This document shows positions 5,030 to 27,949 of a stretch of 64,000 nt of DNA, piece by piece. The DNA comes from Anaerolineae bacterium (GTDB lineage Bacteria; Chloroflexota; Anaerolineae; Aggregatilineales; Phototrophicaceae): contig JBNPEE010000032.1 of assembly GCA_051117475.1 (NCBI GenBank), positions 5,947-69,946 on the forward strand. Reading direction: 5' to 3'. The position numbers were made by a program, and so were the translations under genes. A model generated the notes under the pieces. The model ran no database searches, had not been told where the DNA came from, and worked only from the letters and a program-made list of their open reading frames with translations. Within the stretch, counting starts at the first letter, position 1, and every line of letters begins with the position of its first letter.

Positions 5030-5177
5030 AATCTCTCATCCTCTGTCTGTGGTTAATTGTCGTTCAATCATACCGAATCCTGCCACATTTGAACAAAAAC
5101 TGTGCTTGTCGGAGAGGATCTCCATCGGTATCATGAGAGGACTCATTCGTCATCACTGATAAGGACTGAACAACTCT

Positions 5178-5945: not shown

Positions 5946-5951
5946 GGGGTA

Positions 5952-7169
5952 TCACTCATCCTTGTCGTGCAATTCCGGCGGGATGGTGATCTCTTGCTGA
6001 TTGTTCGCGGGGCGCGTTTCGGCGGTAGGATCAATGATCTCAAGATTATCCAGCACCTGCTGTGATTTGCTGATTGGAAATGGATCTAAACCGCCGATTT
6101 GTGCGCCCATCATCTTCTGGATGGCCAGCAGTTCTTGTGTGGTGATCGAACCCATCGTGTTTTCGAGGTTGTCGGTTTCTTGCGTGCCGAAAGCGCGATG
6201 AAAGGCAATGCGCTGAAACTGCACGCTAGACATATTCGCCACAATCAGCGCGTTGGGGTTGAAGCCATGAGGTAAGAAATCTCTCTGACGAATCAGCAAA
6301 ATGCTCAACAATAAAAGTGCCACCCCTGCCCATTGACCCAGCGTGAGTGAATCCCCAAGGAAGATGAATGCCAGCACGAGCGCTACACCAATTTCTGCCG
6401 CCGCCATAATTGCAGTCTGCATCCCACCTAAGATTTTGACGCTGGCGAACATCGCCAGGCGTGAGAGTGCTGTCGTCACCCCCAATACTACAATGGCAAT
6501 CCCCGCTTGTTGAAATTCGATCTGGCTCATATCAGGCGCAACCGCCAACCAGACCATCGTCACGACCACGCCCATTGTGCTTAGGATATAAAGCGCGGCA
6601 GTCGGGGCAGGCATCTCAAATAACACATATTGACTGAGGATCACCGTCCCTGCGAACATCAGCGCATTCGCTAGCATAAAGCCCACGCCCACCCAATTGA
6701 TGCCGGACGCACTCAAACCGGTGATCATCACCAGTGCGGTGAGCGCCATCATCACGCGCACGGTGGTGCGGATGTCGGTCTTTTGTCCGCCAATCCGTGA
6801 GAGCAAGACCGCGAATGCCAGATACACCCCGTTGATGAGCTGTACCAGCGAGGCATCCAGTTGTTGCAAGCCACCATAATAAAATAATGAGCCGATGCCG
6901 TTGATCGTGCCAATGACCACACAGCCCATCAAACCTGCCGGATAGATGAAAATATATTTGCGGAAGAACAGCGCATAACCGATCCACAACAGCACTACCG
7001 CAACCATCGTGCGCAAGGCGGCTACGGTGAAAGGGTCTGCTTGTGCATCGATTGCGAATTTGCCGAGTACCGGAGCCATCCCCAGAAAGATTGGCGTAGC
7101 AAAAGCGGCAATCACGCCACTCGTGCTAACTGTTGATTTGCTGTGTGCCATCGGTGCGGATTGTCTCAT
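5952..7169 (-). CDS. EamA/DMT-family transporter with ~100-aa hydrophilic C-terminal extension
   Basis: About ten hydrophobic helices are arranged as two EamA-like halves over roughly the first 300 aa. A polar tail follows (QRDFLPHGFNPN...ITIPPELHDKDE). It lies 64 nt downstream of the ThrC-REC gene on the same strand. Confidence 0.75.
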   Translation of the reverse strand: MRQSAPMAHSKSTVSTSGVIAAFATPIFLGMAPVLGKFAIDAQADPFTVAALRTMVAVVLLWIGYALFFRKYIFIYPAGLMGCVVIGTINGIGSLFYYGGLQQLDASLVQLINGVYLAFAVLLSRIGGQKTDIRTTVRVMMALTALVMITGLSASGINWVGVGFMLANALMFAGTVILSQYVLFEMPAPTAALYILSTMGVVVTMVWLAVAPDMSQIEFQQAGIAIVVLGVTTALSRLAMFASVKILGGMQTAIMAAAEIGVALVLAFIFLGDSLTLGQWAGVALLLLSILLIRQRDFLPHGFNPNALIVANMSSVQFQRIAFHRAFGTQETDNLENTMGSITTQELLAIQKMMGAQIGGLDPFPISKSQQVLDNLEIIDPTAETRPANNQQEITIPPELHDKDE

Positions 7170-7233: not shown

Positions 7234-8901
7234 TCACTTCATCTTGTGGATCAGCGTATCGACGAACGCATCATCGACGAATGACCCTTTCTGTAACATC
7301 AGGTCTGTATGCGTCTCTAAGAAATCTTTCTCACGAGCGGTCAAATCTTTGGCAGAGACAACCACAATCGGGATCGCACGTAAGCGTTCGTCGGTGCGCA
7401 TGGTCTCAATCACCGTGAAACCGTCCACATCGGGCATCATCAAATCGGTGATCACCAGATCGGGTGTGATTTCGCGGATAATTTCCAAACCTGCCGCGCC
7501 ATTGTGTGCCAGATAAACTTCGCTATTTTTGCGTGATTCGAGAATACGGCTCATCAAGCGGGCGGCGTTCTCGTTATCTTCGATGACCACCACGCGCCGC
7601 AACGGCCCCTCAATCGAGCCGACGGCATCGTGCAATGCGGCTTCCGGCACAGGAGCAGCCGTTGCAGCAGCGGATAAATCAACGGTGCGTTGCCACTTCT
7701 CACCGAGAATTTGCTTCTCAACAGGTAATGTGTGCCCTGAGCAATTGACCACCACAACATCATTCGGCTTAATGAGGCCCTTGCGCACCATGCGGATTAG
7801 TCCCGCGAAGGTCACGCCGGTTGCTGGCTCAACTGAGATGCCATCCAACCGCGCCAACAGGCGAATGGCGTTGAAGGCTTCTTCATCGCTTGCGGCTTCA
7901 AAGTGCCCGCCGTTCTCCTGGACGTAATCATACAGGATTTCATAGGCGCGTCCGGGATTGCCGGTTGCCAGCGTGACGATCACTGAATCCGAATTTTCGA
8001 GCGGGGTGGCAACCCGTTGGCCGCGTGCATAGGCTTCGACCATCGGCGCACAGCCTGCTGATTGGATCATACCGTATGCTGGCTTTGTGTCGATCAAGCC
8101 GAATTCGTGCATCTCACGGAAACCTTTCGCCAGCCCAATTGGCCCCAGACCGCCCGAAACACCCTGCAAGAACCAATCCGGTGCACGCCAGCGTTCGCCA
8201 TTCTCCAGCTCTGCACCCAATTGCTCGGCGATCTCATACGCCATGGTCTTCATCGCTTCAGTGGCGGCGATGCTTTTGATGCCCTTATCGAGGAACAATC
8301 CCTTGTTGCGGGCGAAGTTCGCCGCCAGCTCTTTGGTCTGGTCATAGGTGCCAGTGGTCTTGATGATCTCCGCGCCGTAAATCGCTGCCTCACGCATCTT
8401 ATCGTTAGGGGTGAGTGCCGGGAAAAATGCCCACAGATGCATCCCTGCCCGCGCTCCATATGCCGCGTAGGCAATAGCCACGTTGCCCGTACTAGCCACG
8501 ACCACCTCATCAATGCCCATCTCTTTCAGTGCAGTGATGGCTACTGTTGCCTGCCGATCTTTGAAGCTACCTGTTGGCCCCTGACGTTCGTCTTTGATAT
8601 ACAGGTTGTTCAAGCCAAGGCTTGCCGCTAGATGCTCGCTCTTGATGAGTGGCGTACCGCCTTCGCCCATCGAGACCACGTTGCTCATATCGTAAATTGG
8701 TAACACTTCGTGATAACGCCACAGCGTATCCGGGCGGTTTTTGAGATCAATCAACCATTGCTGAACGTCGATTTGATCGAGGTTATACCGCGCCTCCATG
8801 ATGGTGTCGCCACACGCCGGACAAGCCCCCGTGAAGCCCTTAAAATCAGTGATGGTATGGCAGTTGGTGCATTCCAACAGAATTTGTTGCTTTTGCGTCA
8901 T
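7234..8901 (-). CDS. threonine synthase-like PLP enzyme fused to a C-terminal response-regulator receiver domain
   Basis: The N-terminus has a Cys4 ribbon (CTNC...CPAC), followed by LWRYHEVLP, GEGGTPL, the PLP-lysine motif GPTGSFKDRQATV and ASTGNVAIAYAAY. The last ~121 aa (nt ~7237-7599) form a CheY-like receiver: VVVIEDNE, DLVITDLMMPDVDG, IVVVSAKD, LQKG. The start is 8 nt after the stop of the giant kinase. Confidence 0.88.
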   Translation of the reverse strand: MTQKQQILLECTNCHTITDFKGFTGACPACGDTIMEARYNLDQIDVQQWLIDLKNRPDTLWRYHEVLPIYDMSNVVSMGEGGTPLIKSEHLAASLGLNNLYIKDERQGPTGSFKDRQATVAITALKEMGIDEVVVASTGNVAIAYAAYGARAGMHLWAFFPALTPNDKMREAAIYGAEIIKTTGTYDQTKELAANFARNKGLFLDKGIKSIAATEAMKTMAYEIAEQLGAELENGERWRAPDWFLQGVSGGLGPIGLAKGFREMHEFGLIDTKPAYGMIQSAGCAPMVEAYARGQRVATPLENSDSVIVTLATGNPGRAYEILYDYVQENGGHFEAASDEEAFNAIRLLARLDGISVEPATGVTFAGLIRMVRKGLIKPNDVVVVNCSGHTLPVEKQILGEKWQRTVDLSAAATAAPVPEAALHDAVGSIEGPLRRVVVIEDNENAARLMSRILESRKNSEVYLAHNGAAGLEIIREITPDLVITDLMMPDVDGFTVIETMRTDERLRAIPIVVVSAKDLTAREKDFLETHTDLMLQKGSFVDDAFVDTLIHKMK

Positions 8902-8909
8902 GTTGTGTC

Positions 8910-11900
8910 CTATTTTTTCTTGCCGTTTATGTTCAGGTACGCCCGCACATTATCGAGGAAAATATCATACTCCTCCTGACTAATATCGGTTTTGTGTAGC
9001 ACATGAATATCAATCAGTTGTTCTTGTTCAGCATTGCTCAGATCCATCTCGCCCGTGACGACCAGTACAGGGATCTTCGCTGTTTCAGGATTATCGCGCA
9101 GTTCATCCAGCACTGCAAAACCATCTTTGCCCGGCATCCGTAAGTCGAGGATGATCAGATCAGGGCGACGGCGAGCCACCAGTGAAATGCCTTCATCGCC
9201 ACTGTTGGCGCTATAAATCTTGAAGTCGCTGTTTTCTTCTAACAGTTGCGTCAACAGGCGGATGGTCTCCGGTTGATCGTCGATGATCAAGATGCGTTCG
9301 CGCTGGCTCTCTTTCTCGGCTTCTAGTACAGCTTCCAGCACATCATCGGGTAGGAACGGACGTTGGATGAAGGTGTGCGCCCCCAGACGATAGGCGCGTT
9401 CGCTGTCCTCATCAAGTGTGGTCACGACCACTGGAATATCGAAGGTATCATCGCGCTCTTTCAGGTTCTTGAGCAGGTTCCACCCCGCACCATTGGCGAA
9501 GTTCACATCGAGGATCACCACACTCGGGCGCAATTGCCCGATCATCGCTTCGGCAAATGCAGGGAAATCTGCTGTGGTGACTTCAAAGCCTTCGCGTTGT
9601 AGGATGCGCCGGAACTGATCGACCATTTTCTTATCATCTTCGACCAAAATCACATCGCGCTTTTGAGTGACCATCGGGATGTTCTGCGTGATATTGGTAT
9701 CAATCCGCCGGCTTTGCGCCCTCTGCACTTCTTGCGTTTCAGTGGCTTCGGGTTGGTGTTGTTTATGACGCGCATTGTTTGCCATCTGCTTGGCTTTTTC
9801 GACATCACTACGGCTAATCAAACCGCTGGCAGTGTCATTAGTGCCGTTGGGTTGGCTATTCTGTGCGATCGGTTTTTGCTTCTGGCGTTTTTCCTGTTGC
9901 AGACGTTCCAGTGTCGTGTCTGCGCCTTCGTAGGTCGGGATCGTCACGCTGAAGGTCGAGCCGACGTTGACTTCTGATACCACAGTCAGTTCTCCGCCTT
10001 GCATCTCAGCCAGCGATTTTGAGATCGGCAAGCCTAAACCCGTTCCACCGACAGTGCGCGTCAATGAGTTATCAACCTGCCGGAATTGCTCGAAGACCGT
10101 TGGCAGGTCTTTCTCGGCAATCCCCATGCCTGTGTCGATCACATCAACACGGATCATCGGCCCTTCCTGCCCTTCAACTGCGTACACATCAATCGTGACT
10201 GTGCCTTCCTGCGTAAACTTGATGGCATTTGTCACCAAGTTCAGCAGAACCTGCCGACTACGCATCTCATCGCCGTAGACCTTCGGCAGACCTTCGGCAA
10301 CTTCTACTAACATTCTCAGCTCTGGTTTCTCTTTCAACAAACCAATCGCAATTGATTTCACACTCTCTACCAGTGGTTTCATATCAAAGTAACCGAACTT
10401 GAGGTTGAGTTCGTTGGCTTCGATCTTCGCCTGATCGAGAATGTCATTAATCAAGCGTAGTAGATGGTTACCGCTATTGTAAATAGTGGTCAAATCTTGT
10501 TCTTGCATCTCGGTTAGAGGCCCGTCGATGCCTTTGAGCATCACGCGGCTAAAGCCGATGATCGAGTTGAGCGGTGTCCGCAACTCGTGCGACATACTCG
10601 CGAGGAATTGGCTCTTGAGACGATCCACCTCGCGCAATTGCTCTACCGATTCCTGCAATTGCTCAACCAACAAGGTATTCTGGATGATCGCGCCAATTGA
10701 CCCTGCCAGCGCCTGCAACAGCGTCAGTTCGTCGCCACTGTAGGCATTCAAGCGGTGGCTTTCTAGTACGATGATGCCCACCATCTTCACACCGGAGGTG
10801 ACCGGCACTACCACCGCTGATTGCGCTTGCGTGCTGATCGGCATGTAGCGGATTTCTTTTTCTACGTTGGGAATGATCTGCGGACGCAAGGCAACTGCCA
10901 CGATACCGAGCATATTCTCAGCATCGTTTAGTTCTATGCTAGGGATGCTGTTGATTGTGATGTCACTCTGGCTATCGATAGCCGCCACCTCGATCAATTG
11001 CTTGCGATTGCCATAGTAATCTTCGTAATCCTGTGGCAGATACATCGCGACGACGTCGGCGCGACTATTCTCGCGGACGCGGTTGGCGACGTAAGCCAGC
11101 GCTTCATCGAGTGTATCCGCCGACGCGGCTTCTGAGGTGGTATCGAACAAGAAGCGCATGTTCTCGGCGCTAGCTTGTGTACTCTCGTACAGACGCGCAT
11201 TGTCAATCGCGACTGCGATTTGTGATGCGAGCGTGGTCAACACCTGCACATCTTCATCAGTGAAGGCGTTCGCTTTGTTGGATTGTACATCCAGCGCACC
11301 CACGATCTCACCTTTGACTACCATCGGCAACGCCATCTCAGAGCGCGTCATCGGCAGGTAGGGGTTGGGGCGATGCACTACTTTGGCGTCAGCGGTATCC
11401 AGCGCGATGGTTGGCTCGCCCAGTTCAGTCACGCGCCCGATCACCGATGATGATCCACGTTCAAGACGGTGAGCAATTTCCAGCAATTTCTGACCGGCTT
11501 CGCCTGTGCTGGCGCGTAACACCGCCCAGCGATTGTCGCTATCCATCAAGAAGATCTGAACATGATCGTACTTGAACTGTTGCTTGATAAGATCCACCAC
11601 CTGTGGCAACAGCACATCGAGATCGAGAATTTGTCCGACGCTCTGGCTGATGACCGCTGAGGTCTGGAGCTGGGTGGCACGTTGTTGCGTCTGTTCAAGC
11701 AAGCGTTTGGCTTCGAGCGAGAGTGAAGTCTGCTCGGCGAACGCCTGGAAAATACGCTCATCACGTTCATCATAGCTATATGGTTGATTTGAACCGAGCC
11801 AGATCACACCAATTGCGCGGTTGGTCACGCGCAGGGGCATGATGACCACCGAGCGCGTGTCGAGGCTTTCAAAGCTGGTTTGCTCCATCGGATTAAGACC

Positions 11901-14900
11901 GTATTGTTCATCATAGATATCATTGATCATTAGCACATGCGGGGTAGCGAGTTGCGCCCATGCCGGGAATTGTTCATAGTTGAATGATACGCCCAACAGA
12001 TCAAGGTCTATGTCAGATTGCCATGTGGCGACCACCTCAACCGTCGCAGCAGCTTGATCCCAGCTCGGACGATCCAACATCGCAATGAAGACCTGATTGA
12101 TATGTCCTTCGATCAGGTGTGTAGTGATTACGTCGATGATCTCTTCCGGTTCTGAGGTGTCGATCAACGCCTTGGATGCCTGATACAGCACGCTCGTCTC
12201 TTGCAGAGTACTCTGAACCTGACTGAGCAAGGACTGGTTATCCAGTACCACACTGGCGCTATCTGCGATGGTACTCAGATAGCGTTCTTCGCGGGTTGCG
12301 AATGTGCGGGGTTGCGTGTAGCCAATCAACAAACGCCCGCCTAACTCGCCCTGAATGCGTAGATTGATCGCCGCAAATGATAGGATATTCCCTGCCTGTG
12401 CAATTTCAACCTCAAATGGGCGGAGTGTACTGCGCGTGATATCTGCAACGAACAGACCGTCGCTACGCGGGAGGGGCAGTTGCATCAGCGCGTCGAGGTC
12501 TAAGCCGTTGGCTTCGCTCTCCTCAAAGCCAGATTTGAACATCACAGTCGGGTTGCCATCGCGAGCTAGCACGTAACCGGCACGCATATCCGGATTGAGT
12601 CCTTCTAACAGCGTGTCAATCGCTTGATACAGTTCTTCTGGATCACGGGCGCGACTGATCGAGGTGTTGGCATTATAGAGTGATTCCGTCTCTTCGAGTG
12701 CTAAGCGCGTGCTCTCAACTAGATAGAGGTTATCAATCGTTTGACTGGTCATATCCGCGATACTGTTGAGCGTGCGCTCTTGATCGAAGCCAAATGCTCC
12801 CACGCGCTCATCAATCAGCATCAACCATCCCAAGGGTTGCTGACGGCTACGCACTGTCAGAGGCATCACCAGCACCGAATGTGCGCCTGCTTCCGTGAGT
12901 ATGTGCCGCGCATCCTCGTCGAGCGTCTTATCTCGCGTAACATCTTCGATGTTGATCTCGTTGTTGTTCAAAATCGTGCCTAATGCGTCGATGTGGGGTA
13001 GGGGTTGTACCAGACTGCGTGCTAATTCGATTCCGTCATCATGATTGAGGAACAGGTGAATATCTGTCGTTTCTTGCATCGCTAACTGAGCGATTAATTC
13101 ATCGAGCAGATTGTCCAGCGTGTCAGCTTCGGTCAAGCCCTGTTGTGTCTCGTAAAGCATCACGGTCTCGCGCAGGTTCTCTTGCATGGTGTATTCCATA
13201 CTACGCAGGGTGCTGATATCCTGAAATGCCGCCACAATTGCGCGTAAGTTCTGGTTGCTGTCGAAGATCGGTGCCGCGCTGATGAACAGATCAACCTGAT
13301 GATCGTCGGATTGGATCACGATGTCATCTGCCGGCGCAACCTGTACACCTGTGTCGCGCACGATATACATCGGCAGTTCATCATCAGGATAGCCCCGGCT
13401 TGTGCCCGTGCGGTACATGCGATAATCACTCGCTGAGAAGGGCTTATCGAACAGAACCTCTTGCCCCAGTAATTGCGAGGCAATCGCATTGGTTGAAACA
13501 GGCTCTAGCGTGACAGGATCGAGCACCATCACACCCACCGGCAAGGTTGCCAGAATTTCATCGAGGCGTTGGCGTTCGTATTGTGTCTCGCGCAGGAGCA
13601 GCTGGTTCTCGATAGCAATCGTCACCTGATCGGCAATAGATTGCATGAAGCGCGTGTAATCTTCGGTGAGCAATCGCGGTTGATCGGTGCGGATAATCAG
13701 CACACCAAACCAACGCGAACGTGACCACAACGGCGCAATGACTGCGCTGCTAGCCTGATCGGCACTCAGAATCTCGCGCACCATTGGGAAGTCATCCGGC
13801 ACAGTATTCAGATCACGATAGACCAATAGACCGTCGTCGTTATTGGCGATCATCATGCCGAACGGCGCATCTTCTTGCGAGATGATCGTGCCTGTTTCAA
13901 TCTGTGGGGGTTGAGTGGGATCACTGTGCCACGTATATTCATAGCGCAATTGAGGCGCATGTAAACTTGGCTCCGGTTGTGCGAGCAGAAGCGTCAGCGA
14001 GATGTTCAAATCCTCATCACTGCGAGCACTCTGTTGGATGAAGGGTAATGCGAGATGACCGGCAACCGCGTCGTAGATGCCCTGTGTATCCTGCGCACTA
14101 GAGATGGCACGGGTGGCGATATAGAGACGGCGTACTTCGCTCAATGCCTGTTCGGTCTGTGTCAACAAGCTACGGTTCTGAATTTGTGTGCTCATCTGAC
14201 CGGTCAGCGCACGGTAGACTTCGTAATCATCCTGTGAAAGATCGTACAGATCGCGATTGACGATATAGAATATCGCAATGGGTGTATTATCGCTGAATAG
14301 CGGGAAAATCGCCATGAATTTGTAATTGAGATCGCGCATCCACTTGACCGCGGGCGGCACATCTTGAATATCTTCGCCAGGATCGACCAGGATTTCCGGC
14401 TCGCGCTGGCGCATCGGTGAATGTTCTGGCACGAAGAGCGGGTGTATTTCGTTGGCTTCTTGCACGTCACCCTGTGCCGATTTGGCAATGATGCGCGTCT
14501 GGTCTGTCCAATCGTCATGGACGGTCTCACCATCGAGCAACGCCAACCAGAAATCGAGATTCGGCTCGCTGGCGGTAGCCACCGCCGCAAACACTAGATC
14601 CAATAGGCTCTGCGAGGTGTTGATGATACGGCTGGCGGCGTAGAGTTTCTCCTGCCGCGTGAGTGCATCTTCGGTCTGTTGGAGTAGCAAGCGGTTATCA
14701 ATTGCCACACCCGCCTGTGCGATAAGGGCGTTGTAAATGCGCATCTCACGCTGGCTGAACAAGCGCCGTTCTGCGAAGGAGATCGTCATGAAGCCCTTCC
14801 ACGATCCGCGCATGTTCAATGGGATAACAATCAGTGAAGCGGCGTTGACGCTCTCGAAAAGCTGGCGCAAATCATCGCGCATCAAGCCTTGCTTCTGAAC

Positions 14901-19570: not shown

Positions 19571-21219
19571 GACGTGACCTCACCCTCACCAATGACCTGT
19601 ACGTCGGGTTTGAGGCGGATCTGTGTTTGTACTGCGCCCAATGCCTCATTGAAGTTTTGCGCGGCTAATTCTAGTACGGTGTTAATATCTGTCGATGTTA
19701 GGAGCAAATTGCCGATCTGATTGGCTTTGCTCTCGCGTTGTGCCTGTGCTTGGTTTTGCTCAAATAGGCGCTTGTTTTCCAGCGCGAGCGAGAGCCGTTG
19801 TACCACGTTCTGGATGAGATCATGCTCGCGGGCGTTCAAGCTGTCATTGCCTGCCGGCAAACGGAAAGACATCGCGCCGATGGTCTGCTGGCGTAACTGG
19901 ATGGGCACACGTACCACTTGCTGATCGCCATCCTGCTCAACTGTGATGTCGCCGGTAGCGAGTGCGCTTTGAAGATCATTACCCATGCTGGTGGATTCGA
20001 CAGGCTCAGCAGTCAAAGAGGGCAGATCATAACCCAGATGTGATACGCCCAACTCTTTGAGATAGGTTGTCCAGCTCTCAGTTGTGGTCTGGCGCTCAGC
20101 ATCTTCATATTGGCGGATGCGTTGACGCTGGCGCTCAATTACAGCGTCTTGTTCTTGAATGTTCTGGCGCAAGTTGGTGATCAAGCGCGATTGTGCGAGT
20201 GATTGCCCCAGTTGTAACGCGACCATTTGCAGTGTTTGCAATTCTGTGGTCGCAAAGCTGTTTTGATCTTCACTCTGCACGTCAATGATGGCGATGACTT
20301 GCCCCTGTTGATCGGTGACAGGAATTGCCAGTGCGCCCCGCGTGCCGGTCAGCAGGTGCTGGCGCAGTAAGATGTCGTCACTCTCCTCAATTATCAGCGT
20401 TTCGCCACGGCGCATCGCTTCATGTAGACCACTACGTGTATCTAAAGTCAGTTTACTCTCGATGTTGATCTGTTGTAAGTTCAAGCCACTCTGGACACGT
20501 TGTACAATCTCCCCATTATCAACCATATAGACGCGGGCGAACGTGTAGCGCAATTGGTCGCGAATGATCGAGATGGTGGTGAAGATCGCACGGCGTTCAT
20601 CGCTCTCCTGACGTGTCGAGAGCGTGCCTTCGATGATTTGCTGTAGGCGGTTGCGCTCAGTGATGAACTGTGCCGCCGCCTGCTGAATCGTCGTGCCAAA
20701 CATGAATACCAGTACATTGAGGGTGAATAGCAAAATAGTTGCCGTGAAGAACTGCTCCGGTAGGTTGTTGTTGACCAGTGTTGGCCCTGTTAGCAAACCG
20801 ATGACTACCAGGAAGATCAGCACTGTAGAACGCCGTCCCAGCAACAGACCTGCGGTCACGATGGGCACGACGTAAGTCAATACCAGCACATCTGCAATCG
20901 TCTCTGCACTCCACAAGCCTAACGGTGAGATCAAACTCATGCCAAGGATGCCGAATGCCCCGATCCGGTAAAAGCCCTGACGCACCATCCCGAATAATAT
21001 CAATACCAGAAACGGGCTGAGTATGCCGAAAACGCTTGCAGTGTTCAGGTCAATTTCTGGCAGGGTATTGATGAACTGTGCCGTCAGAAAGACGGATGCA
21101 ATCACCGCAATGACAAAACCTGCCATCAAATATAGCAATAAGCTCCGCACCTGTTGCCATCTGATCGGGTCATCGTATGTCCCACGGGGTTGAGTGAGAG
21201 CGTATAATCTATTGAACAT
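19567..21219 (-). CDS. polytopic membrane GAF protein (paralog D), no output domain
   Basis: The preferred start is ATG 21219 (MFNRLYALTQ), with GGAGG 8 nt upstream. The longer ORF to 21393 would overlap the preceding gene by 185 nt. The protein has about 6 TM helices with a VRQGF motif, then a GAF-like domain, a coiled coil, the accessory module and the conserved C-terminal tail. Confidence 0.85.
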   Translation of the reverse strand: MFNRLYALTQPRGTYDDPIRWQQVRSLLLYLMAGFVIAVIASVFLTAQFINTLPEIDLNTASVFGILSPFLVLILFGMVRQGFYRIGAFGILGMSLISPLGLWSAETIADVLVLTYVVPIVTAGLLLGRRSTVLIFLVVIGLLTGPTLVNNNLPEQFFTATILLFTLNVLVFMFGTTIQQAAAQFITERNRLQQIIEGTLSTRQESDERRAIFTTISIIRDQLRYTFARVYMVDNGEIVQRVQSGLNLQQINIESKLTLDTRSGLHEAMRRGETLIIEESDDILLRQHLLTGTRGALAIPVTDQQGQVIAIIDVQSEDQNSFATTELQTLQMVALQLGQSLAQSRLITNLRQNIQEQDAVIERQRQRIRQYEDAERQTTTESWTTYLKELGVSHLGYDLPSLTAEPVESTSMGNDLQSALATGDITVEQDGDQQVVRVPIQLRQQTIGAMSFRLPAGNDSLNAREHDLIQNVVQRLSLALENKRLFEQNQAQAQRESKANQIGNLLLTSTDINTVLELAAQNFNEALGAVQTQIRLKPDVQVIGEGEVTS

Positions 21220-22903
21220 CCGCTTGACCTCCATTAGCATCTGCTGTGGACATTTGCTCTGTGTCGGGGGTGTCGTCCTGTATCGCCCCCAGGCGTATCG
21301 AAGCCTGTGATGCACCGAGCGTTTCGGCCAGCCCCTGTAAAGTGACACGCAACATCTCATCCACTGAATCCACTGCTTGATATTGCGATACAATCTCGTT
21401 CACGCGTTGTTCTTGCGCGGTGGCTTCGTTCGACTCTTCAAACAAACGAGCATTGTCGAGGCTGACCGCTAACCGTTGCGAGACGTTGCGTACCATGTCG
21501 GCCATATCATCTTGCTGTTGGTTGGAGCTCGTTTCGATCTCAATTGCGCCGATCACCTCACCGCGTAATTCAATCGGTACGGCTACTTTCCGTTTGTCCG
21601 CTTGCGTATCAATGATGGCGCGTCGGCGTTGGCTGGCGCTGACCATCTCCTCTGACCAATCCGCTGAGTTCGAGAATGTGTTGCCGGCTAAGGTCACGCC
21701 GTCAATGCGTCGATTGGAGCTTAAATACTCATCCCAGGCTTGTTTGGTCAACTGTCGATTGAGCCGCTGAATCTCGCGCAAGTTCATCTCTGAGTCGAGG
21801 AATAAGCGCTTGTTCTCTTCGATATTGCGCTCTTTATCTTCGAATAAACGTGCGTTGCGGATAGCAGTCGCAAGCTGGTTGGCAATCACTTTGAGCGCTT
21901 CGATCTCATTTTTGCTGAAGGCATCTGCCAGACGGCTCTGAATATCCACCACACCGATGATGCCGTTGTTATCGAGGATTGGAACAGCAAGCTCTGATCG
22001 GGTATACGGCAACAACTCGTTGAAGGCGCGTCCTTCACTGTCGCTGTCACGGGCGATGATGACCTCCTGCGATTGTGCGGAACGCCCTACCACGCTCTCA
22101 GGGTTGATTGCTAGCTGATGTTCACGGGCTAACATGCGCTCGCCGACTTCGCCTGTGCTGGCGTGTAAACGGGCATAGGTCAATTCAGGGTCAACCAGAA
22201 ATACGGACACATGATAGAATGCAAAGCGATCACGGATGATATCCACCACGCGCTCCAGCAAGGTGTCGAGATCGAGCATTTCCGAGACGGTGCGCCCAAT
22301 ATCGGCACTTGCCGCTAGCAAACGCGCTGAGCGCTGGGCTTCTAGCGTTGTTTCTTCCATCGTATTGATGACATAGCGTGCCATCAGGCTGATGACAATC
22401 GGCGCGAAGCCTAGCAACAGCGCCTGTGATGGATAGGCGTTCAACACGGCATTTTCACTTGTTGCGTTGATCGCAGTCACGCTGAACACGATTAATAAAT
22501 AGGCACTATTGAACACCCAGAACGCCAACGGACGCGATAAGAACGCGATCAACAGTGCGACCACACTCAACAAGAGATAAAGTGTGATGATCTCTTGAGT
22601 GGTGCTGTAGATTATGACAACGATTACCAGCGCAAAGCCACTGACGATTGTGCTCACTAGCTCGACCAGATAGCCCTGTCGGACTAAGATCAGCAAGCCC
22701 ACTGATAACACACTCGCGACCAGTGTGACAGATACCAGCTGATTGTTAGAGGAGGGTAGCGCGTTCGCTAATCCAGTAAGAAATAGGGCAGTACTCGCGA
22801 GCATCAGCACGCCTAATGCTGCTTGCAATAATCGTGCGCGAAGTCTCGAGATAATAGTCTCCGCGTCACGTTGATTGAGCGTTGAAGTCTTTTGGATTTG
22901 CAT
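21209..22903 (-). CDS. polytopic membrane GAF protein (paralog C), no output domain
   Basis: About 6 TM helices carry LILVRQGYLVE. The GAF signature is FYHVSVFLVDPELTYARLHASTGEVGERMLAREHQLAINPESVVG. The accessory module reads QAWDEYL...VAVPIELRGEVIGAIEIE...DNARLFEES, and the C-terminal tail ends in SIRLG. Confidence 0.88.
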   Translation of the reverse strand: MQIQKTSTLNQRDAETIISRLRARLLQAALGVLMLASTALFLTGLANALPSSNNQLVSVTLVASVLSVGLLILVRQGYLVELVSTIVSGFALVIVVIIYSTTQEIITLYLLLSVVALLIAFLSRPLAFWVFNSAYLLIVFSVTAINATSENAVLNAYPSQALLLGFAPIVISLMARYVINTMEETTLEAQRSARLLAASADIGRTVSEMLDLDTLLERVVDIIRDRFAFYHVSVFLVDPELTYARLHASTGEVGERMLAREHQLAINPESVVGRSAQSQEVIIARDSDSEGRAFNELLPYTRSELAVPILDNNGIIGVVDIQSRLADAFSKNEIEALKVIANQLATAIRNARLFEDKERNIEENKRLFLDSEMNLREIQRLNRQLTKQAWDEYLSSNRRIDGVTLAGNTFSNSADWSEEMVSASQRRRAIIDTQADKRKVAVPIELRGEVIGAIEIETSSNQQQDDMADMVRNVSQRLAVSLDNARLFEESNEATAQEQRVNEIVSQYQAVDSVDEMLRVTLQGLAETLGASQASIRLGAIQDDTPDTEQMSTADANGGQADVQ

Positions 22904-22908
22904 GTGGG

Positions 22909-24567
22909 TTAGCTATCCTTCCCATTGCTCTTGCTCGGGCGATCTGGTGCACCGAGGCGGATCATCACTTTTTCCGCACTGAGGGTATCGCCAATACTGC
23001 GGGCGGCTTCTGCCAATGTCGCTTCGACATTCTGCGCTGACTGGAAGCGACTGGTGATCTGGTTGATGAGCGTCTCGCGCTGTGCCGTGCGACGGCTTTC
23101 CTCGACCAGGCGCGTGTTCTCTGCTGCTAGCCCGAACCGTTCACTCACTTCAAGGAGCAGTTCCAAATCTTCCTGTGTAATGTGTTGCGCCTCGTCTAAC
23201 TCAAACTCCATCGCACCGACAACCTGCCCACGCACGCGCAATGGCACAGCGATCACATTATCCATCTGCACAATTTGATTCTGCTCGGTGGCATTTAGCA
23301 AGCCCTCTGTCCATGCGTGATAAGCCTCACTTTGGTTGGTGCTGAAATCAATGGCGATGCCTGGTTCTTCACCCATATGTTGAATATGCTCTGACCACGC
23401 TCGCCCGATCAAACGCTGGTTCAGGCGTTCTACTTCGCGCAATGCTGAACGAGTCTGTTCTGCTAAACGCTGATTTTCTTCAACCTGTGCTTGTGCCTGT
23501 TCAAATTGTTGAATGCTGTCAATCGCCAACGATAGACTGTTCGCTAATGATTGAAAGGTCAAGCGGTCATCTCTGTTGAGTTCGGTTAGCGTCTTACTCT
23601 GCAAATCGAGCGCACCGATGATGCGCGTGCCAACCCGCAAAGGGAAAGCGGCTTCTAATGTGGTATCAGGTAATAACTCATTGGTACGATGAACGCCGTC
23701 TTTTTCGCTACTGAGGGCGATGACCGGTTCACCGGTCAGCGTTGTTTGCCCGATCACGCTCAAACTGCCGACTGCTAGACTGTGTGACCGTTCGATCAGC
23801 TTCTGACCCGCCTCGCCCGTGCTGGCGCTCAAACGCGCTTGAATGCCGTCATTATCGAGCAAGAAGATCTGTGCATGATACATCTGCGGGTAGTTCTGGA
23901 GGATCAGTTGCAAGGTGGTGTTGAGCGCACTATCCAGAGATTGGCGCGTGGAAGCCTGTTGGGTGATGTACATGTTTACTTCTGCCAGTTTGATACGTTC
24001 CTGACTCTCTAGTGTTTGCCCTTTAATCTGGCTAGCCGCAACAAATTGATTATAGGCATAGACCATCAACCCGATCACCACATAAATTGTTGATAGGGTC
24101 AGGCGCACCGGCCATTCATAATTGCCTGTATCTAGGTAGCCGTTGATGGCGGGGAAGAGCAGTGTTTGCCCGATGGCAACAGCCCCGAATAGCACGATGC
24201 CAGGTGTCTCCAGCAAAAAACCACCCATGAGGATTAATAGCGCGACGTTCAGGATCTGGCGGGGCATCAGGATGCCGTCCGGTAAGTTAGCCGACACGCT
24301 GATGCTCGCCATGCCGATCAACAAAATCCAACTGCCCAGTTTAAAATAACCCTGTCGCACGAGGACATACACGCCCAGCGTGATCGCAATGCCGATGAAA
24401 GGCGCGATAGACGCAAGTGCAATCCCGGCAATGTTGCCGATGACAGATAGGATGAGCAACATAATAGTAACCATGAACAGCAAGCCGTAGACAATCGTCA
24501 CCCGTAAACGGTCACTGCGGTTACTGTAGGCGCTGGTGTTCAGGTAGAGATTGAGAAGCTGTTCCAT
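22909..24567 (-). CDS. polytopic membrane GAF protein (paralog B), no output domain
   Basis: About 6 TM helices carry YVLVRQGYFKL. The GAF signature is MYHAQIFLLDNDGIQARLSASTGEAGQKLIERSHSLAVGSLSVIG. The accessory module reads RAWSEHI...IAVPLRVRGQVVGAMEFE...ENTRLVEES, and the tail ends in MIRLG. The start is 2 nt after the upstream stop. Confidence 0.88.
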   Translation of the reverse strand: MEQLLNLYLNTSAYSNRSDRLRVTIVYGLLFMVTIMLLILSVIGNIAGIALASIAPFIGIAITLGVYVLVRQGYFKLGSWILLIGMASISVSANLPDGILMPRQILNVALLILMGGFLLETPGIVLFGAVAIGQTLLFPAINGYLDTGNYEWPVRLTLSTIYVVIGLMVYAYNQFVAASQIKGQTLESQERIKLAEVNMYITQQASTRQSLDSALNTTLQLILQNYPQMYHAQIFLLDNDGIQARLSASTGEAGQKLIERSHSLAVGSLSVIGQTTLTGEPVIALSSEKDGVHRTNELLPDTTLEAAFPLRVGTRIIGALDLQSKTLTELNRDDRLTFQSLANSLSLAIDSIQQFEQAQAQVEENQRLAEQTRSALREVERLNQRLIGRAWSEHIQHMGEEPGIAIDFSTNQSEAYHAWTEGLLNATEQNQIVQMDNVIAVPLRVRGQVVGAMEFELDEAQHITQEDLELLLEVSERFGLAAENTRLVEESRRTAQRETLINQITSRFQSAQNVEATLAEAARSIGDTLSAEKVMIRLGAPDRPSKSNGKDS

Positions 24568-24569
24568 AA

Positions 24570-26687
24570 TTATTGGTCTCCAACCGTTGGTGATGGTCTG
24601 ATGCCCAGACGAATCCGTGCTTTCTTGGCGCCGATAGCTTTGCCTAGCTCGTGCGCGGTGACGTTCAAGATATCATGGACGTCAATTTGCTCCTGTAGCT
24701 TGCCGATGATCTCGTTAGCCTGAGTTTTGTTGTGTGCCAGTCGTAAGCTCTGTGAGTAAGCATTCGCATTCGAGAGCGCAATCGCCAGCTGGTTTCCGAT
24801 CTGGCGTAAGGTGTTGGCATCAGTGGCATTGTAGTGATGCGCTTCTGCACTGCCAATTTCTAATATACCCAGCATCCCGTCTGCCAGCGAGAGCGGCATC
24901 ACCATCAGCGATTGTATGGCGCGTTGTTGTGGGTGTTTCCAGCTCCAATCTGTGTTCAGATCCGCAATGTGCACCAATTGTTTGTCGTTGAGCACTTGTT
25001 CGGCAATGGTGTTCTCACTCTGATCCATACGTTGCGCGGGTTGGATGATTTCACGCTCACCCTGTAAATATTGTGCGTGTTTGAACAAACTGGCGCTGTT
25101 TGGCTCGTATAACAAAACACCGAGGTAATCCACACTCAGCACATCTGGCGCGTAAGTCAGTGTGGTGCGTAAAATGTCCTCTTGCGAGAGATGTGCACGC
25201 AAGGCTTGCCCAAAATTAGTCAGGCGTTCGAGTTGTTGTGCTTTTTGCTGAGATTCGGATAACAACCGAACATTCTGTAAACTGAGCGCAATTTGCCCGA
25301 CGATGGTTTCGGCAGTGTCGATCACCCGTTGCTCAATCTGGGCTTGTTGGGTGTAATAATCCAGCCCGACACTGCCGATGAGCGCGTTGTTCTCATCAAA
25401 CATCGGGATCACAATCAAGGACTTAATGCCGACAGAGAGCAAATAATCCCGCGTGTTTTGTTCGAGTGCATCATAATTGGCAAGGTCTGTGATGATAAGT
25501 GCCTTACCGCTTTCCTCAATTATGCGGTCAATGGCGCTACCCGGTTCGATCTCATCACCAACGAGGTCTTGCGCAGGGGCTTCGCCGACGACGACGTTGC
25601 TATTGCCAGAGCGAATGATAATGCCGACATGATCAACACCTGTGATCTCATACAGCACATCAGCCGTCTGTTGTAAGATCGGCTGATCGATTTTGTGGCG
25701 GTTGGCTTGTGCGATGAGTTGGTTGAGCAAGCTCAGCACGCGCACCTGCTCATCGGAGCGTGACGCGCTCTGTTGTGTGCGTTCGAGCAGGCGTTGTCGC
25801 TCTACCACAATCGTGGCTTGATGCGCGATATTCTGATATAGCTCTTTCTCCAACGTCGTCGGCGCGAGTGACCGTGTGGTGTCACATAGGCAGATAAACG
25901 CTGTTAATCGCTGATCCAGCCACATCGGCATCACATACATGGATCGGATCTGTTGCGATTGCAACCAGACTTTCGCGTCATCGGTGAAGCGCGCTTCCTG
26001 TTGCACGTCGGTGAGCAACACTTCGCCGACTTCCAACAACAGCGTGTGCAATTCCCGCACCGCCGAGAGGTTGATATTCATCTTCAAATCGGTCTGATAG
26101 GCATTATGGCGGTTTGCTGTGCCGATCACACGCCCCCCCACAACCTGATCATCGTAGTCGTATTCAAATAAGTTCATGCTGACGAATTGTTGTTTCTGCA
26201 CGATATTCTCAGCGATTACCTGCGCCACATCACTCAAAGATGCGACCATGCTCAGTTTGCCCGTTGTCGCAATCTGTTTGTGCAATAGGTCTTGTACTTG
26301 TTGGGTATAAACCAGCAAGCTGAGATCCAGCGCGAGATCGGCTAAGGTATCTTGCTCAATTGTGCCGGTGATGACTAATAACGCAAATGGTGCTTGCTGA
26401 TAAATCAGCGGAGCGATCCATTGCTGAACGGCGTGGTCTTCGATAATCATCTGCTCATCGAGTGCCTGTTGCCAGAGTGCATCGGGCTCAAGGGAAATGA
26501 ACACGCCATCACGGTGTGTACTCTGTTCGCCGTGCCACAGCATCACCCCACCCGGTGCAATGCGGAATACTTCCGCCCCGCGCACCATCTCCAATTCACC
26601 GACAATCTGTGCCAGCGCTCGATCCAATAATTGTTCAGGCGTATGGATGTCCGCTTGGGTTTGCAAACCACGCAATGTCAAAGTCAT
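24570..26687 (-). CDS. soluble multi-GAF protein (about four GAF-like modules), no TM and no output domain
   Basis: 705-aa ORF with no obvious hydrophobic helices. Repeated GAF-like terminal helices are present (IVVERQRLLERTQ, ALSLQNVRLLSESQ, AIALSNANAYSQS). It has the same 51-residue C-terminal tail, ending in RIRLG. Confidence 0.82.
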   Translation of the reverse strand: MTLTLRGLQTQADIHTPEQLLDRALAQIVGELEMVRGAEVFRIAPGGVMLWHGEQSTHRDGVFISLEPDALWQQALDEQMIIEDHAVQQWIAPLIYQQAPFALLVITGTIEQDTLADLALDLSLLVYTQQVQDLLHKQIATTGKLSMVASLSDVAQVIAENIVQKQQFVSMNLFEYDYDDQVVGGRVIGTANRHNAYQTDLKMNINLSAVRELHTLLLEVGEVLLTDVQQEARFTDDAKVWLQSQQIRSMYVMPMWLDQRLTAFICLCDTTRSLAPTTLEKELYQNIAHQATIVVERQRLLERTQQSASRSDEQVRVLSLLNQLIAQANRHKIDQPILQQTADVLYEITGVDHVGIIIRSGNSNVVVGEAPAQDLVGDEIEPGSAIDRIIEESGKALIITDLANYDALEQNTRDYLLSVGIKSLIVIPMFDENNALIGSVGLDYYTQQAQIEQRVIDTAETIVGQIALSLQNVRLLSESQQKAQQLERLTNFGQALRAHLSQEDILRTTLTYAPDVLSVDYLGVLLYEPNSASLFKHAQYLQGEREIIQPAQRMDQSENTIAEQVLNDKQLVHIADLNTDWSWKHPQQRAIQSLMVMPLSLADGMLGILEIGSAEAHHYNATDANTLRQIGNQLAIALSNANAYSQSLRLAHNKTQANEIIGKLQEQIDVHDILNVTAHELGKAIGAKKARIRLGIRPSPTVGDQ

Positions 26688-26719
26688 ATGAGTATTTGCT
26701 CCTGCTTAAAAGGCTGAAT

Positions 26720-27142
26720 TCACTGCCATTCCCACACTTGTTCACCAGCGAGCAAGCGTTTGATTTGATCGGGGAAACGGTCAGGATCGAGTGGCTTACC
26801 CAGAAAACCATCAAAACCGCTCTTCTGAGCGCGACGCATCTGATCTTCGCTCGCTTCGGCGGTCACAGCACACACGATGGTATCTTGCAACTTCGGGTTC
26901 GAGCGTACTTTTTGTAATGCCTGATAGCCATCTTCGTAGGGCAAGCGAATATCCATCAAGATCAAATCGATGCGTGGCAAGGTCTCGGCAAATTGTACCA
27001 CCTGCCAACCGGACGTCTTCCATTCACAGCGTTGCACACCCATGAATGCTAACATCCGTGCAATCAGAACAAAATTCGGGACATTATCCTCAACAACTAG
27101 CACATGTGCTTCGTTCGGTTCAATAGCGTTTAATTTTGACAT
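26720..27142 (-). CDS. single-domain response regulator (receiver only)
   Basis: Receiver motifs HVLVVEDN, DLILMDIRLPYEDG, VCAVTAEA and LGKP are present. Length is 140 aa with no output domain. AGGAAG precedes the ATG. Confidence 0.9.
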   Translation of the reverse strand: MSKLNAIEPNEAHVLVVEDNVPNFVLIARMLAFMGVQRCEWKTSGWQVVQFAETLPRIDLILMDIRLPYEDGYQALQKVRSNPKLQDTIVCAVTAEASEDQMRRAQKSGFDGFLGKPLDPDRFPDQIKRLLAGEQVWEWQ

Positions 27143-27154
27143 GACTTCCTTTAC

Positions 27155-27514
27155 CTAGAGATACTGTGATAATTCCTCAACAAAAGTATCAACTTCTATC
27201 GGTTTGCTGATATACCCGTCACAACCCGCTTCGAGGATCATCTCACGATCTCCATGCATAGCATTGGCGGTGAGGGCGATAATGGTCAGATTAGCAATGC
27301 CTGGAATGGCACGAATGCGATTCGTTGCTTCCAACCCATTCATATCCGGCATCGCAATATCCATCAAGATTAAATCCGGCGGGTTGCTCTCAGCCATGTT
27401 AATACCATCCTGAGCATTGTCAGCTTCTTCCATCTCAAAGCCTTCCGCTGCCAGAATTCGTTTAACCAACAAACGGTTGGCAAAATCGTCATCAATATAC
27501 AGAATACGTGGCAT
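27155..27514 (-). CDS. single-domain response regulator (CheY-like receiver only)
   Basis: The preferred start is ATG 27514 (MPRILYIDDD), with GGAGG 6 nt upstream. Receiver motifs are DLILMDIAMPDMNG, IIALTANA and ISKP. The 21-codon upstream extension in the ORF track lacks support. Confidence 0.9.
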   Translation of the reverse strand: MPRILYIDDDFANRLLVKRILAAEGFEMEEADNAQDGINMAESNPPDLILMDIAMPDMNGLEATNRIRAIPGIANLTIIALTANAMHGDREMILEAGCDGYISKPIEVDTFVEELSQYL

Positions 27515-27949
27515 GATAATCCTCCTACTGTTACTGATGGGACAGGTGATCATACACGTCCAGCAACAGTCGCCCATTCGTGGACTGTTTACTCACTCCA
27601 TTATAGTATAGTCGTCGAATACGGTTCTCAGCATAAACGTTTTGTCAATCTCTCAATTATAGGGGGCTTAAAAAGTTCCTTGCCACCTTCTGCTGGCAAT
27701 TTCTAACCTAAAATAACCTCTATACTGACCATTTTCCTGTGTGGCGGGTACGATAGCACCATACAGAAACCTCTATTCTATTGTAAGCAGATTTTCTAAT
27801 GGTGCTCAAGCATGTGTGTGGTTGGTTGAGGATTTATGTTAGTTTTTGATGATGATCGGCTAACCCTCCGTAGCACACCGCAACAGTCAGTGCTAAGATG
27901 AAGCTGTGAGTTATATACAATTAATTTGATAACCCTAGGGAGTTTTCTG

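Follow-up and report, generated by a model that had tools for sequence, protein, structure and literature searches.

The window analysed here is a 64,000-nucleotide (nt) stretch of contig JBNPEE010000032.1 from an Anaerolineae bacterium (Chloroflexota). Its minus strand carries, at 7234-27514, an array of nine open reading frames (ORFs), designated g1 to g9 in their order along that strand, which encode two stand-alone receivers, five GAF-domain proteins that have no output domain, a giant hybrid histidine kinase, and a threonine synthase (ThrC)-like, pyridoxal phosphate (PLP)-dependent enzyme fused to a receiver (ThrC-REC). We are confident that the nine genes form a co-functioning cluster. 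The predicted link between the kinase and the enzyme is well supported by comparative genomics, and phosphotransfer from g8 to g9 is probable. Assembly of the GAF receptors with the kinase into a mixed complex is put forward more tentatively. For the whole chain, a branched two-component pathway without an HPt domain that would run from paralogous GAF receptors through one kinase to two regulators and a threonine-synthase-like enzyme, we consider the case evenly balanced.

The nine ORFs are listed below; the stub is a C-terminal segment shared by g3 to g7.

27155-27514, minus strand: g1, stand-alone receiver (REC), 119 amino acids (aa), acceptor Asp52
26720-27142, minus strand: g2, stand-alone receiver (REC), 140 aa, acceptor Asp64
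24570-26687, minus strand: g3, soluble multi-GAF protein, 705 aa, no output domain, stub at nt 24603-24800
22909-24567, minus strand: g4, polytopic-membrane GAF receptor, 552 aa, no output domain, stub at nt 22951-23148
21209-22903, minus strand: g5, membrane GAF receptor with six transmembrane (TM) helices, 564 aa, no output domain, stub at nt 21287-21484
19567-21219, minus strand: g6, polytopic-membrane GAF receptor, 550 aa, no output domain, stub at nt 19609-19806
17276-19570, minus strand: g7, TM helix, dCache-like periplasmic domain, TM helix, HAMP, GAF and mini-domain, 764 aa, stub at nt 17366-17563
8910-17279, minus strand: g8, giant hybrid histidine kinase, 2789 aa from GTG 17279 or 2781 aa from ATG 17255
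7234-8901, minus strand: g9, 555-aa PLP enzyme of the ThrC family, four-Cys ribbon at the N-terminus and REC at the C-terminus

Organization and domain content of the array

The first-pass annotation of this DNA had described nine same-strand genes joined by very short junctions, and the same arrangement was found here: the first four junctions are spacers of 12, 32, 2 and 5 nt, the next three are overlaps (11 nt, ATGA and GTGA), and the last is an 8-nt spacer. At the g7-g8 junction, the ATG at 17255, 24 nt downstream, is an alternative to the start in the GTGA overlap. Shine-Dalgarno-like sequences precede the starts at 27514, 27142, 26687, 24567, 22903, 21219, 19570 and 17255, among them an AGGAGG 7 nt ahead of the g1 ATG (27514) and a GGAGG site ahead of the g6 start (21219). 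Because of these sequences, 27514 is favored as the start of g1, and g8 probably starts at ATG 17255. The lengths of the orthologues agree with the starts at 27514 for g1 and at 21219 for g6 (orthologues of 550-577 aa). ORFs of 550-2789 aa that carry such domains are not chance events.

That no terminator-like hairpin separates the genes, as had been reported, was true of every junction on the coding strand; terminator-like and promoter-like sites were as numerous as in shuffled sequence, and none was located at a junction on the coding strand. The only long noncoding gap flanking the array is an AT-richer stretch of 411 nt (27515-27925; G+C content of 0.47 in 26001-28000), which lies between g1 and a divergent cyclophilin gene and is likely to be the promoter region of the array; a convincing sigma-70 consensus was not found in this stretch.

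A Pfam scan of all nine proteins bore out the domain content described earlier; GAF modules were also counted with an iterated GAF profile built from the window. All five of the receiver domains previously listed (g1, g2, two in g8 and one on g9) were recovered, and five of five keep the acceptor Asp. Neither an HPt nor a DNA-binding output domain was detected by Pfam in the nine proteins, in agreement with the earlier reading, and Hpt (PF01627) had no match in the 30 other window ORFs of at least 150 aa; a small HPt protein may still be encoded elsewhere in the genome. The earlier count of up to ~25 GAF-like modules was too high: the iterated profile gives 21 (three in g3, two in each of g4 to g7 and ten in g8), five of which are short "half" domains, plus a probable 22nd module at the N-terminus of g3. 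It had also been stated that the only HisKA/HATPase core is that of g8, which is correct within the array, but two more multi-GAF/PAS kinases are encoded just upstream (28487-31879 and 31992-36335).

Conservation of the array and recurrence of the kinase-enzyme pair

The array had been proposed to be a single unit, and its order (REC, REC, five GAF proteins, giant kinase, ThrC-REC) is indeed kept with one-to-one orthology in at least six related genomes. All nine genes occur in the same order in L003, L005, L006, L007, L008 and L009 (L numbers denote the related loci), and each paralogue has its own best orthologue. L001 is from the cultured Phototrophicus methaneseepsis (CP062983, ~5.18-5.21 Mb), and its visible part comprises g7-g8-g9. 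The operon-like organization was likewise upheld, as short or overlapping junctions, notably those of g3-g7, recur in the orthologous clusters; in L003-L005, the genes of g3-g7 overlap by up to 8 nt or are separated by up to 6 nt. Gaps at g7-g8 and g8-g9 are variable and reach ~215 nt, and g8-g9 junctions with a stop/start overlap or a 4-10-nt gap are found in the window, L003, L006, L008, L086 and L089. Module counts are stereotyped: nearly all membrane receptors have two GAF-like modules, the kinases have 8-11 GAFs and two receivers, and the ThrC has one receiver. Gene order within the clade is weak evidence, however, because synteny is generally high.

The pairing of kinase and enzyme is also found at greater distances. 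A g8-like multi-GAF kinase is located directly upstream of ThrC-REC in four of the five ThrC-REC lineages sampled (the window clade, L089, L091 and L092). In L089 (44% identity), the multi-GAF/PAS kinase has 2753 aa, terminates with its ATPase domain, carries no receivers, and overlaps the start of a ThrC that has two; a stand-alone receiver follows the ThrC, and the upstream GAF-protein array is absent. In L092 (44%), ThrC-REC follows a receiver-less multi-GAF kinase of at least 1013 aa and is itself followed by two stand-alone receivers, one of which is 50% identical to g1. In L091 (49%), ThrC-REC is preceded by the C-terminal part of a g8-like hybrid kinase, with 54% identity over the core, and followed by an EamA-family gene. 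The neighborhoods differ, with an IS1 transposase and a DUF7282 gene upstream in L089 and CopCD and TPR genes in L092. Because the pair recurs in different neighborhoods, and because receivers move between the two genes, g8 and ThrC-REC can be viewed as a cognate kinase-acceptor pair. The enzyme had been called the terminal acceptor of the system. This description holds in part: the g8-like kinase upstream in four ThrC-REC lineages makes the enzyme a likely phospho-acceptor of g8, but it is one of three candidates, the others being g1 and g2.

Looser arrays are present in other Anaerolineae (L010, L011, L013, L018 and L027), where four to eight stub-terminated GAF proteins are followed by a GAF kinase. 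These kinases differ in size (514 aa in L018, 834 aa in L027 and ~1600 aa in L010), and receivers resembling g1 or g2 are part of some arrays. Genes for periplasmic solute-binding proteins (Bmp/PnrA-like and Peripla_BP_6; 1810-2826 and 5116-6309) are interspersed among the receptor genes of L010, and a ParA/MinD-like ATPase gene lies just before the kinase gene in both L010 (11471-12256) and L013 (15109-15891).

The giant kinase, the ThrC-REC enzyme and the stand-alone receivers

The domains of g8 and g9 that bear on phosphotransfer and catalysis are as follows.

15030-17279, minus strand: receptor-like module of g8, paralogous to g4-g7
9933-10616, minus strand: kinase core of g8, with His2231
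8913-9653, minus strand: two RECs of g8, with Asp2591 and Asp2712
7738-8676, minus strand: PALP domain of g9, with Lys114
7237-7593, minus strand: REC of g9, with Asp486

The g8 protein is a HisKA-class hybrid histidine kinase with HisKA, HATPase_c and C-terminal REC domains. Pfam detects GAF (6-7 stretches per GAF model), HisKA (PF00512, 72 bits, residues 2222-2288, with the H-box SHELRTP containing His2231), HATPase_c (PF02518, 89 bits, residues 2336-2449) and two PF00072 stretches, the first of which (REC1) has Arg at the conserved Lys position. Its first ~750 residues consist of a TM helix, a periplasmic domain, a second TM helix, HAMP, a GAF and a half-GAF. The g4 to g7 proteins align colinearly with g8 residues ~351-749 (23-30% identity, E-values of 3e-13 to 1e-47), so the kinase starts with a sixth copy of the receptor.

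In g9, Pfam finds PALP (234 bits) and REC (PF00072, 64 bits), and the receiver keeps ED, Asp486, Ser and Lys. The closest structures are the threonine synthases 2ZSJ (Aquifex, E-value of 1e-46), 2D1F and 1UIM, and the similarity to 2ZSJ is higher for g9 (163 bits) than for a second ThrC-like gene in the window (116 bits). The PLP lysine, Lys114 (SFKDR), and the STGN loop are invariant or nearly so in an alignment with REC-less homologues, and the alignment with 2ZSJ agrees. The N-terminal four-Cys ribbon and the VSGGxGP loop mark a subfamily to which REC-less homologues of 375-435 aa also belong. These similarities suggest a threonine-synthase-like activity for g9, which we treat as a prediction. 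The ThrC part is 71-88% identical across the orthologous clusters. The PALP-REC fusion was seen in all 120 of the 120 best database matches (70-100% identity; 70-88% across more than 100 clusters) and in six more 50%-identity clusters that are 41-49% identical to g9. A literature search found no paper describing a threonine synthase-receiver fusion.

The stand-alone receivers match Response_reg of Pfam with 96 bits (g1, in which the DD/D/T/K residues are present) and 66 bits (g2), and the best NCBIfam matches of both are the receivers of BarA, HrmK, RcsC and TorS. Orthologues of g1 are 119-125 aa long and 55-87% identical. The g2 protein is the most conserved of the cluster, with 87-93% identity across orthologous clusters, and g2-like receivers are encoded in looser arrays as well (78% identity in L011 and 62% in L013). 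The rate of g2 evolution is unusually slow, given that the neighboring receptors reach just 28-58% identity; this degree of conservation fits a protein with many partners and suggests that g2 may have many interaction partners.

The output-less GAF proteins end in a conserved stub

By Pfam, g3 to g6 contain GAF domains only, and g7 contains HAMP and GAF. The g3 protein has three GAF modules according to both Pfam and our own profile and has no hydrophobic segment; its orthologues are 553-1475 aa long with two to seven GAFs, and it shows a weak NCBIfam match to NreA (E-value of 2.5e-4). The g4 to g6 proteins begin with several TM helices (three to five by hydropathy scan), and their polytopic membrane domains evolve quickly. 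The AlphaFold model of g5 (predicted local distance difference test score, pLDDT, of 85; predicted template modelling score of 0.62) has six TM helices, the last of which extends into the cytoplasm, and then, in order, a GAF, a 66-residue helix, a small beta-rich domain, a helix and the stub helix. In g7 and g8, two TM helices flank a periplasmic domain of ~290 residues that Pfam identifies as dCache_1 in orthologues and that Foldseek matches to chemoreceptor ligand-binding domains; the Foldseek matches of the g7 model (pLDDT of 86) are models of methyl-accepting chemotaxis proteins (MCPs) with dCache domains, and GAFs.

The g5 and g7 models agree on the cytoplasmic module, which is composed of a full GAF, a helix (~50 residues in g7, 66 in g5), a beta-rich domain, a long helix, a short helix and a disordered end. 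The small beta-rich domain is the C-terminal half of a GAF, here called the half-GAF. The module is shared by g4 to g7, in which it is 25-33% identical between proteins, and g3 has the GAFs and the stub in common with them. In the PDB, the g5 model is matched best by the GAF-A/GAF-B tandem segment of PDE2A (1MC0); tandem-GAF regulatory segments of this phosphodiesterase type are dimeric. When the sensor parts were compared with each other, no significant similarity was found beyond a marginal match of g4 to g6 (E-value of ~1e-4). The membrane domains of g4 to g6 have no Pfam match and no significant similarity to the upstream kinases, and the Foldseek matches of these proteins are confined to the GAF part. 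Orthologues are 38-58% identical for g4, 28-47% for g6 and 38-56% for g7.

All five proteins stop at an equivalent point, with a stub of ~65 residues and, behind it, a short tail that varies. The stub is made up of the last GAF helix (consensus ENARLFE), then the first helix and first strand (IRLG) of a further GAF whose remainder is missing. A search with a stub profile located it 2-51 residues from the C-terminal end of 63 output-less GAF proteins; these come from 17 loci, all of them in Chloroflexota. In g8 the stub sequence continues into a complete GAF, the first of eight further GAFs, after which come a PAS-like segment and the kinase core. Within the g5 family, the linker and the stub are nearly invariant, and the TM part is barely conserved. 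The best 120 matches of this family are 408-602 aa long (518-602 aa when full-length; the shorter ones are mostly partial sequences on short contigs), and the best 120 of the g7 family are 545-785 aa long (~734-785 aa when full-length), some of them with PF02743 (dCache_1). None of these 240 family members has an output domain, so that the description of the GAF proteins as output-less extends to the two families; because the families are uniform in length and have no extra domain, we conclude that the lack of an output domain is a conserved state and not the result of truncation.

Two ideas about the fold of the stub were discarded. Split-GAF complementation, in which the stubs would complete partial GAFs of g8, is countered by the ~100 residues of g8 itself that precede each partial match and by the stub-like sequence of g8, which runs on into a full GAF. 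A permuted GAF, with the stub folding back onto the half-GAF, is unsupported, as the stub strand is disordered in both AlphaFold models.

The sequences also offer clues to the ligands. The cyclic-nucleotide motif NKFDE, searched for as NK..F...DE, matches none of the proteins. The Cys that would hold a bilin-type chromophore is absent from g4 to g7, which are Cys-free, and g8 has one Cys in 2789 residues. Taken together, g3 to g8 contain 3 Cys in 5924 residues, compared with 0.49% in the 30 other window ORFs, a roughly ten-fold depletion (binomial p of ~1e-9) that is kept in orthologous and variant arrays (L003-L009, L013, L018 and L089). Because the NKFDE motif is missing and Cys is almost absent, sensing through cyclic nucleotides of the phosphodiesterase type, bilins, iron-sulfur clusters or thiols is unlikely; judged from this depletion, Cys-linked cofactors are ruled out for the GAF proteins and the kinase. 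The R-x-W-Y amino-acid motif of dCache_1AA was not seen by eye in the periplasmic domains of g7 and g8, a weak negative.

A proposed pathway

Given the divergent sensor domains and the solute-binding protein genes of L010, the receptors g3 to g7 may sense different ligands. Their helices and GAFs could pair them as dimers or join them to the homologous part of g8 in mixed oligomers, and each receptor would then tune the kinase in trans. The N-terminus of the kinase is paralogous to the receptors, and the module they share resembles a dimeric tandem-GAF segment; it is from these two features that we infer a receptor complex. Regulation of this kind has precedents. NreA of Staphylococcus carnosus is a stand-alone GAF protein that has been reported to control the co-operonic kinase NreB. 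In Streptomyces coelicolor, the stand-alone GAF protein CvnF8 binds its co-operonic kinase CvnA8 and stimulates autophosphorylation (PMC13343842).

The kinase would autophosphorylate at His2231. Because no HPt domain was found, the phosphoryl group is expected to pass directly to competing receivers, namely the two of g8 itself, g1, g2 and the REC of g9. Phosphorylation of Asp486 would alter the activity or the assembly of the threonine-synthase-like enzyme and couple sensing to amino-acid metabolism, and the EamA-family transporter encoded downstream of g9 may belong to this branch. The g1 and g2 receivers would be further outputs that act on other partners, or phosphate sinks. In the most elaborate version, which we find doubtful, the GAF proteins and the kinase N-terminus would co-assemble via the shared module into a mixed membrane complex, a GAF-built counterpart of chemoreceptor arrays that the ParA-like ATPase of the distant arrays might position. 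This complex would feed many signals into one kinase, whose direct phosphorylation of threonine synthase would control amino-acid flux and growth without a transcription factor, with g2 acting as a hub on the stubs.

Observations against the pathway and alternative explanations

A number of observations weigh against the proposed pathway. Other kinases encoded nearby may serve the same receivers, two of them upstream in the window and a REC-kinase downstream in relatives. L004 keeps g1 to g8 without an adjacent ThrC-REC; L090 (~40% identity) is the only sampled lineage without a kinase beside ThrC-REC; and in L089 the pair of kinase and ThrC-REC occurs without the GAF-protein array. In P. methaneseepsis, the g7-g8 gap is 109 nt and the g8-g9 gap is 215 nt, which leaves room for internal promoters. 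Synteny in the order is generally high, and it extends to nearby genes for cyclophilin, an Exo_endo_phos-family protein, DoxX and the second PALP enzyme. The strand of the stub is disordered and undocked in the monomer models of both g5 and g7. No HPt was found, so that the two receivers of g8 have no clear role, and REC1 lacks the conserved Lys. Finally, g9 falls marginally below both NCBIfam cut-offs for threonine synthase (TIGR00260, 167.0 versus 167.1; PRK08197, 280.3 versus 303).

The best surviving alternative is that the GAF proteins are independent tandem paralogues, each with its own ligand and its own signaling (for example, by sequestering g1 or g2 or through an unlinked partner), which do not enter a mixed complex with g8 and are neighbors by duplication and co-expression. 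The paralogy with the g8 N-terminus would then reflect common origin and not interaction. Such independence would accommodate the undocked stub, the presence of kinase and ThrC-REC without the array in L089, and the pairing of arrays with kinases as different as those of L018, L027 and L010. However, one-to-one orthology and overlapping stop/start codons have persisted at 28-58% protein identity, which argues for selection on co-production, and the lack of an output domain is common to ~240 family members. Moreover, it is the linker and stub that are conserved, not the ligand-facing part, and every array found ends with a GAF kinase. We regard independent signaling by the GAF proteins as unlikely, although it has to be taken seriously.

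It is also conceivable that g9 is an ordinary threonine synthase that serves as an input or a sink, its REC draining phosphoryl groups according to substrate occupancy and so reporting amino-acid status, with g1 and g2 as the real outputs. The high conservation of the enzyme part (71-88%) is what a housekeeping enzyme would show, ThrC-REC is encoded beside OTCase and aminotransferase genes in L090 and L091, g2 is the most conserved component, and competing receivers are expected where HPt is absent. Enzyme-fused receivers usually regulate their enzyme, however, as in CheB, PleD and RpfG, and the number of receivers on the ThrC of L089 is reciprocal to that on the kinase, so that ThrC-REC has the look of a cognate acceptor. 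A role as a sink is improbable in our view. The neighbors of ThrC-REC in L090 are OTCase, aminotransferase and pyruvate kinase genes, that is, arginine and central-metabolism genes.

Inherited synteny could in principle account for the entire arrangement, if there has been too little time for rearrangement and ThrC-REC is served by another kinase, such as the product of the REC-HisKA-HATPase gene behind it. Unrelated neighbors of the array are retained along with it, the REC-kinase gene directly follows ThrC-REC in L001, L086, L087 and L088, and the adjacency of kinase and ThrC-REC is missing in L004. Yet this adjacency recurs in lineages that are 44-49% identical and have otherwise different neighborhoods; the REC-kinase gene is missing from the window and from L003, where ThrC-REC retains its receiver; and in six loci, the window included, g8 and g9 overlap or are 4-10 nt apart. 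These points make synteny alone very improbable as an explanation. The notion that g3 to g7 are pseudogene pieces of a decayed giant multi-GAF gene, to which the very short junctions and the resemblance of each C-terminus to the start of another GAF might point, is rejected, as gene boundaries are unchanged in at least seven genomes, g4 to g7 start with TM segments of their own, g3 to g7 each have a ribosome-binding site, and the families are uniform in length with nearly invariant stub residues.

Comparison with known systems

The branched pathway proposed for g1 to g9 is a two-component system assembled from domain types that are already known, and it does not amount to a novel kind of machinery. 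None of the characterized systems with which it was compared resembles the arrangement: what defines a chemosensory array, a stressosome, an HPt phosphorelay or a cyclic-nucleotide or bilin GAF sensor is missing. It had been stated that no characterized system has this organization, and our literature search, which found no equivalent, is in accord; the literature covered, including the P. methaneseepsis paper, contained nothing relevant on output-less GAF receptor arrays in Anaerolineae.

The closest parallels are the CvnF8-CvnA8 and NreA-NreB pairs, in which, as here, a GAF protein with no catalytic or DNA-binding output is encoded beside a histidine kinase. CvnF8 and NreA are single, small, soluble GAF proteins, one per kinase, whereas the array encodes five paralogues, four of which are membrane-anchored and have their own sensor domains. 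The tandem GAF/half-GAF module, the terminal stub and a kinase with ten GAF-like modules are further differences, and binding to the kinase is, for the array, a prediction.

In design, the array resembles chemoreceptor arrays, with paralogous receptors that have divergent sensors (dCache and HAMP) and a conserved cytoplasmic module, a single kinase, and branched transfer to receivers and to an enzyme-fused receiver; the ParA/MinD-like ATPase gene of L010 and L013 recalls some chemotaxis clusters. In contrast to those systems, the array and its flanks encode no MCP signaling domain, CheW, CheA, CheR or CheB, the kinase belongs to the HisKA class, and the shared module is built from GAFs. That the GAF receptors might form chemoreceptor-like arrays is pure conjecture. 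The stressosome (RsbR/RsbS/RsbT) offers no match, as neither STAS nor HATPase_c_2 is present in the array.

Like the hybrid kinases ArcB, BarA, RcsC, TorS and LuxQ, g8 combines HisKA, HATPase_c and C-terminal receiver(s) on one polypeptide. It differs from hybrid kinases of multistep phosphorelays in that no HPt was found (in the nine genes or the window ORFs of at least 150 aa), in its two receivers, and in its extreme size and GAF count. The g5 model resembles GAF-A/GAF-B of PDE2A (1MC0) in having a GAF, a long connecting helix and a second GAF-like domain; here, however, the second domain is a half-GAF, the NKFDE motif is absent, the protein is membrane-anchored, and no catalytic domain follows.

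The g9 protein is comparable to CheB, PleD/WspR and RpfG, as it joins an enzyme domain to a receiver in which Asp, Ser/Thr and Lys are intact; it differs in that the partner is a biosynthetic PLP enzyme of fold-type II and the receiver is C-terminal. With threonine synthases it shares the SFKDR lysine, the STGN loop and overall similarity to the solved ThrC structures, and it is set apart by the VSGGxGP loop (GNxGN in 2ZSJ) and by the predicted regulation by phosphorylation. Plant threonine synthase (PDB 1E5X and 2C2B) is allosterically activated by S-adenosylmethionine via an added N-terminal region, and thus provides a precedent for a regulatory element appended to a threonine synthase.

If the pathway is correct, it would represent a new design in which many inputs converge on one kinase from output-less GAF receptors defined by a conserved terminal stub; the stub-terminated GAF family is nameless and has hundreds of members in Anaerolineae. 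The acceptor of a two-component system would be a core amino-acid biosynthetic enzyme, so that environmental sensing would act on metabolism post-translationally. Because the cultured P. methaneseepsis carries at least g7-g8-ThrC-REC, these ideas are directly testable. Even if the complex model fails, the kinase and ThrC-REC would constitute a clean new cognate pair for the regulation of a PLP enzyme by a receiver.

Flanking genes

Genes on either side of the array, and the REC-kinase gene of the relatives, are located as follows.

5952-7169, minus strand: EamA-family (DMT) transporter, 405 aa, Pfam EamA, 64 nt downstream of g9
3941-5029, minus strand: second ThrC-like PLP enzyme, 362 aa, with four Cys at the N-terminus and scores under every NCBIfam threonine-synthase cut-off
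27926-28435, divergent from the array: cyclophilin gene, between the array and the upstream kinases
28487-31879, minus strand: membrane-anchored multi-GAF/PAS kinase, 1130 aa, no receivers
31992-36335, minus strand: membrane-anchored multi-GAF/PAS kinase, 1447 aa, no receivers
L001 11902-13188, L086 12123-13427, L087 11784-13073 and L088 11904-13208: REC-HisKA-HATPase gene

An EamA gene follows ThrC-REC, either directly or past the REC-kinase gene, in all relatives with a visible downstream region (L001, L003, L086, L087, L088 and L091); the L091 protein is 39% identical to that of the window, and the L091 ThrC-REC is only 49% identical to g9. The transporter is a possible tenth member of the cluster. 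RhtA of Escherichia coli, which mediates threonine/homoserine efflux, belongs to the EamA (DMT) family, as does EamA, and by this analogy the position of EamA after ThrC-REC hints at a synthase-exporter pair. The REC-HisKA-HATPase gene (~430 aa) lies between ThrC-REC and EamA in most relatives and is cleanly missing from the window, where the gap is 64 nt, and from L003. A 362-aa PALP gene is located near the cluster in L087 too.

On the upstream side, an orthologue of the kinase at 28487-31879 is also found upstream of the array in L003, and a kinase-like ORF is present upstream in L006; the upstream kinases could feed the g1 and g2 receivers. No Rfam family and no tRNA, tRNA-Sec included, was found in the 64-kb window, in which a gene for SelA (selenocysteine synthase, 450 bits) is located at 52852-54213 on the minus strand. 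Beyond the upstream kinases, a gene for a BTAD/TPR-type transcriptional activator-like protein (38083-39366, plus strand) lies beside an O-antigen-ligase-like gene (36479-37951).

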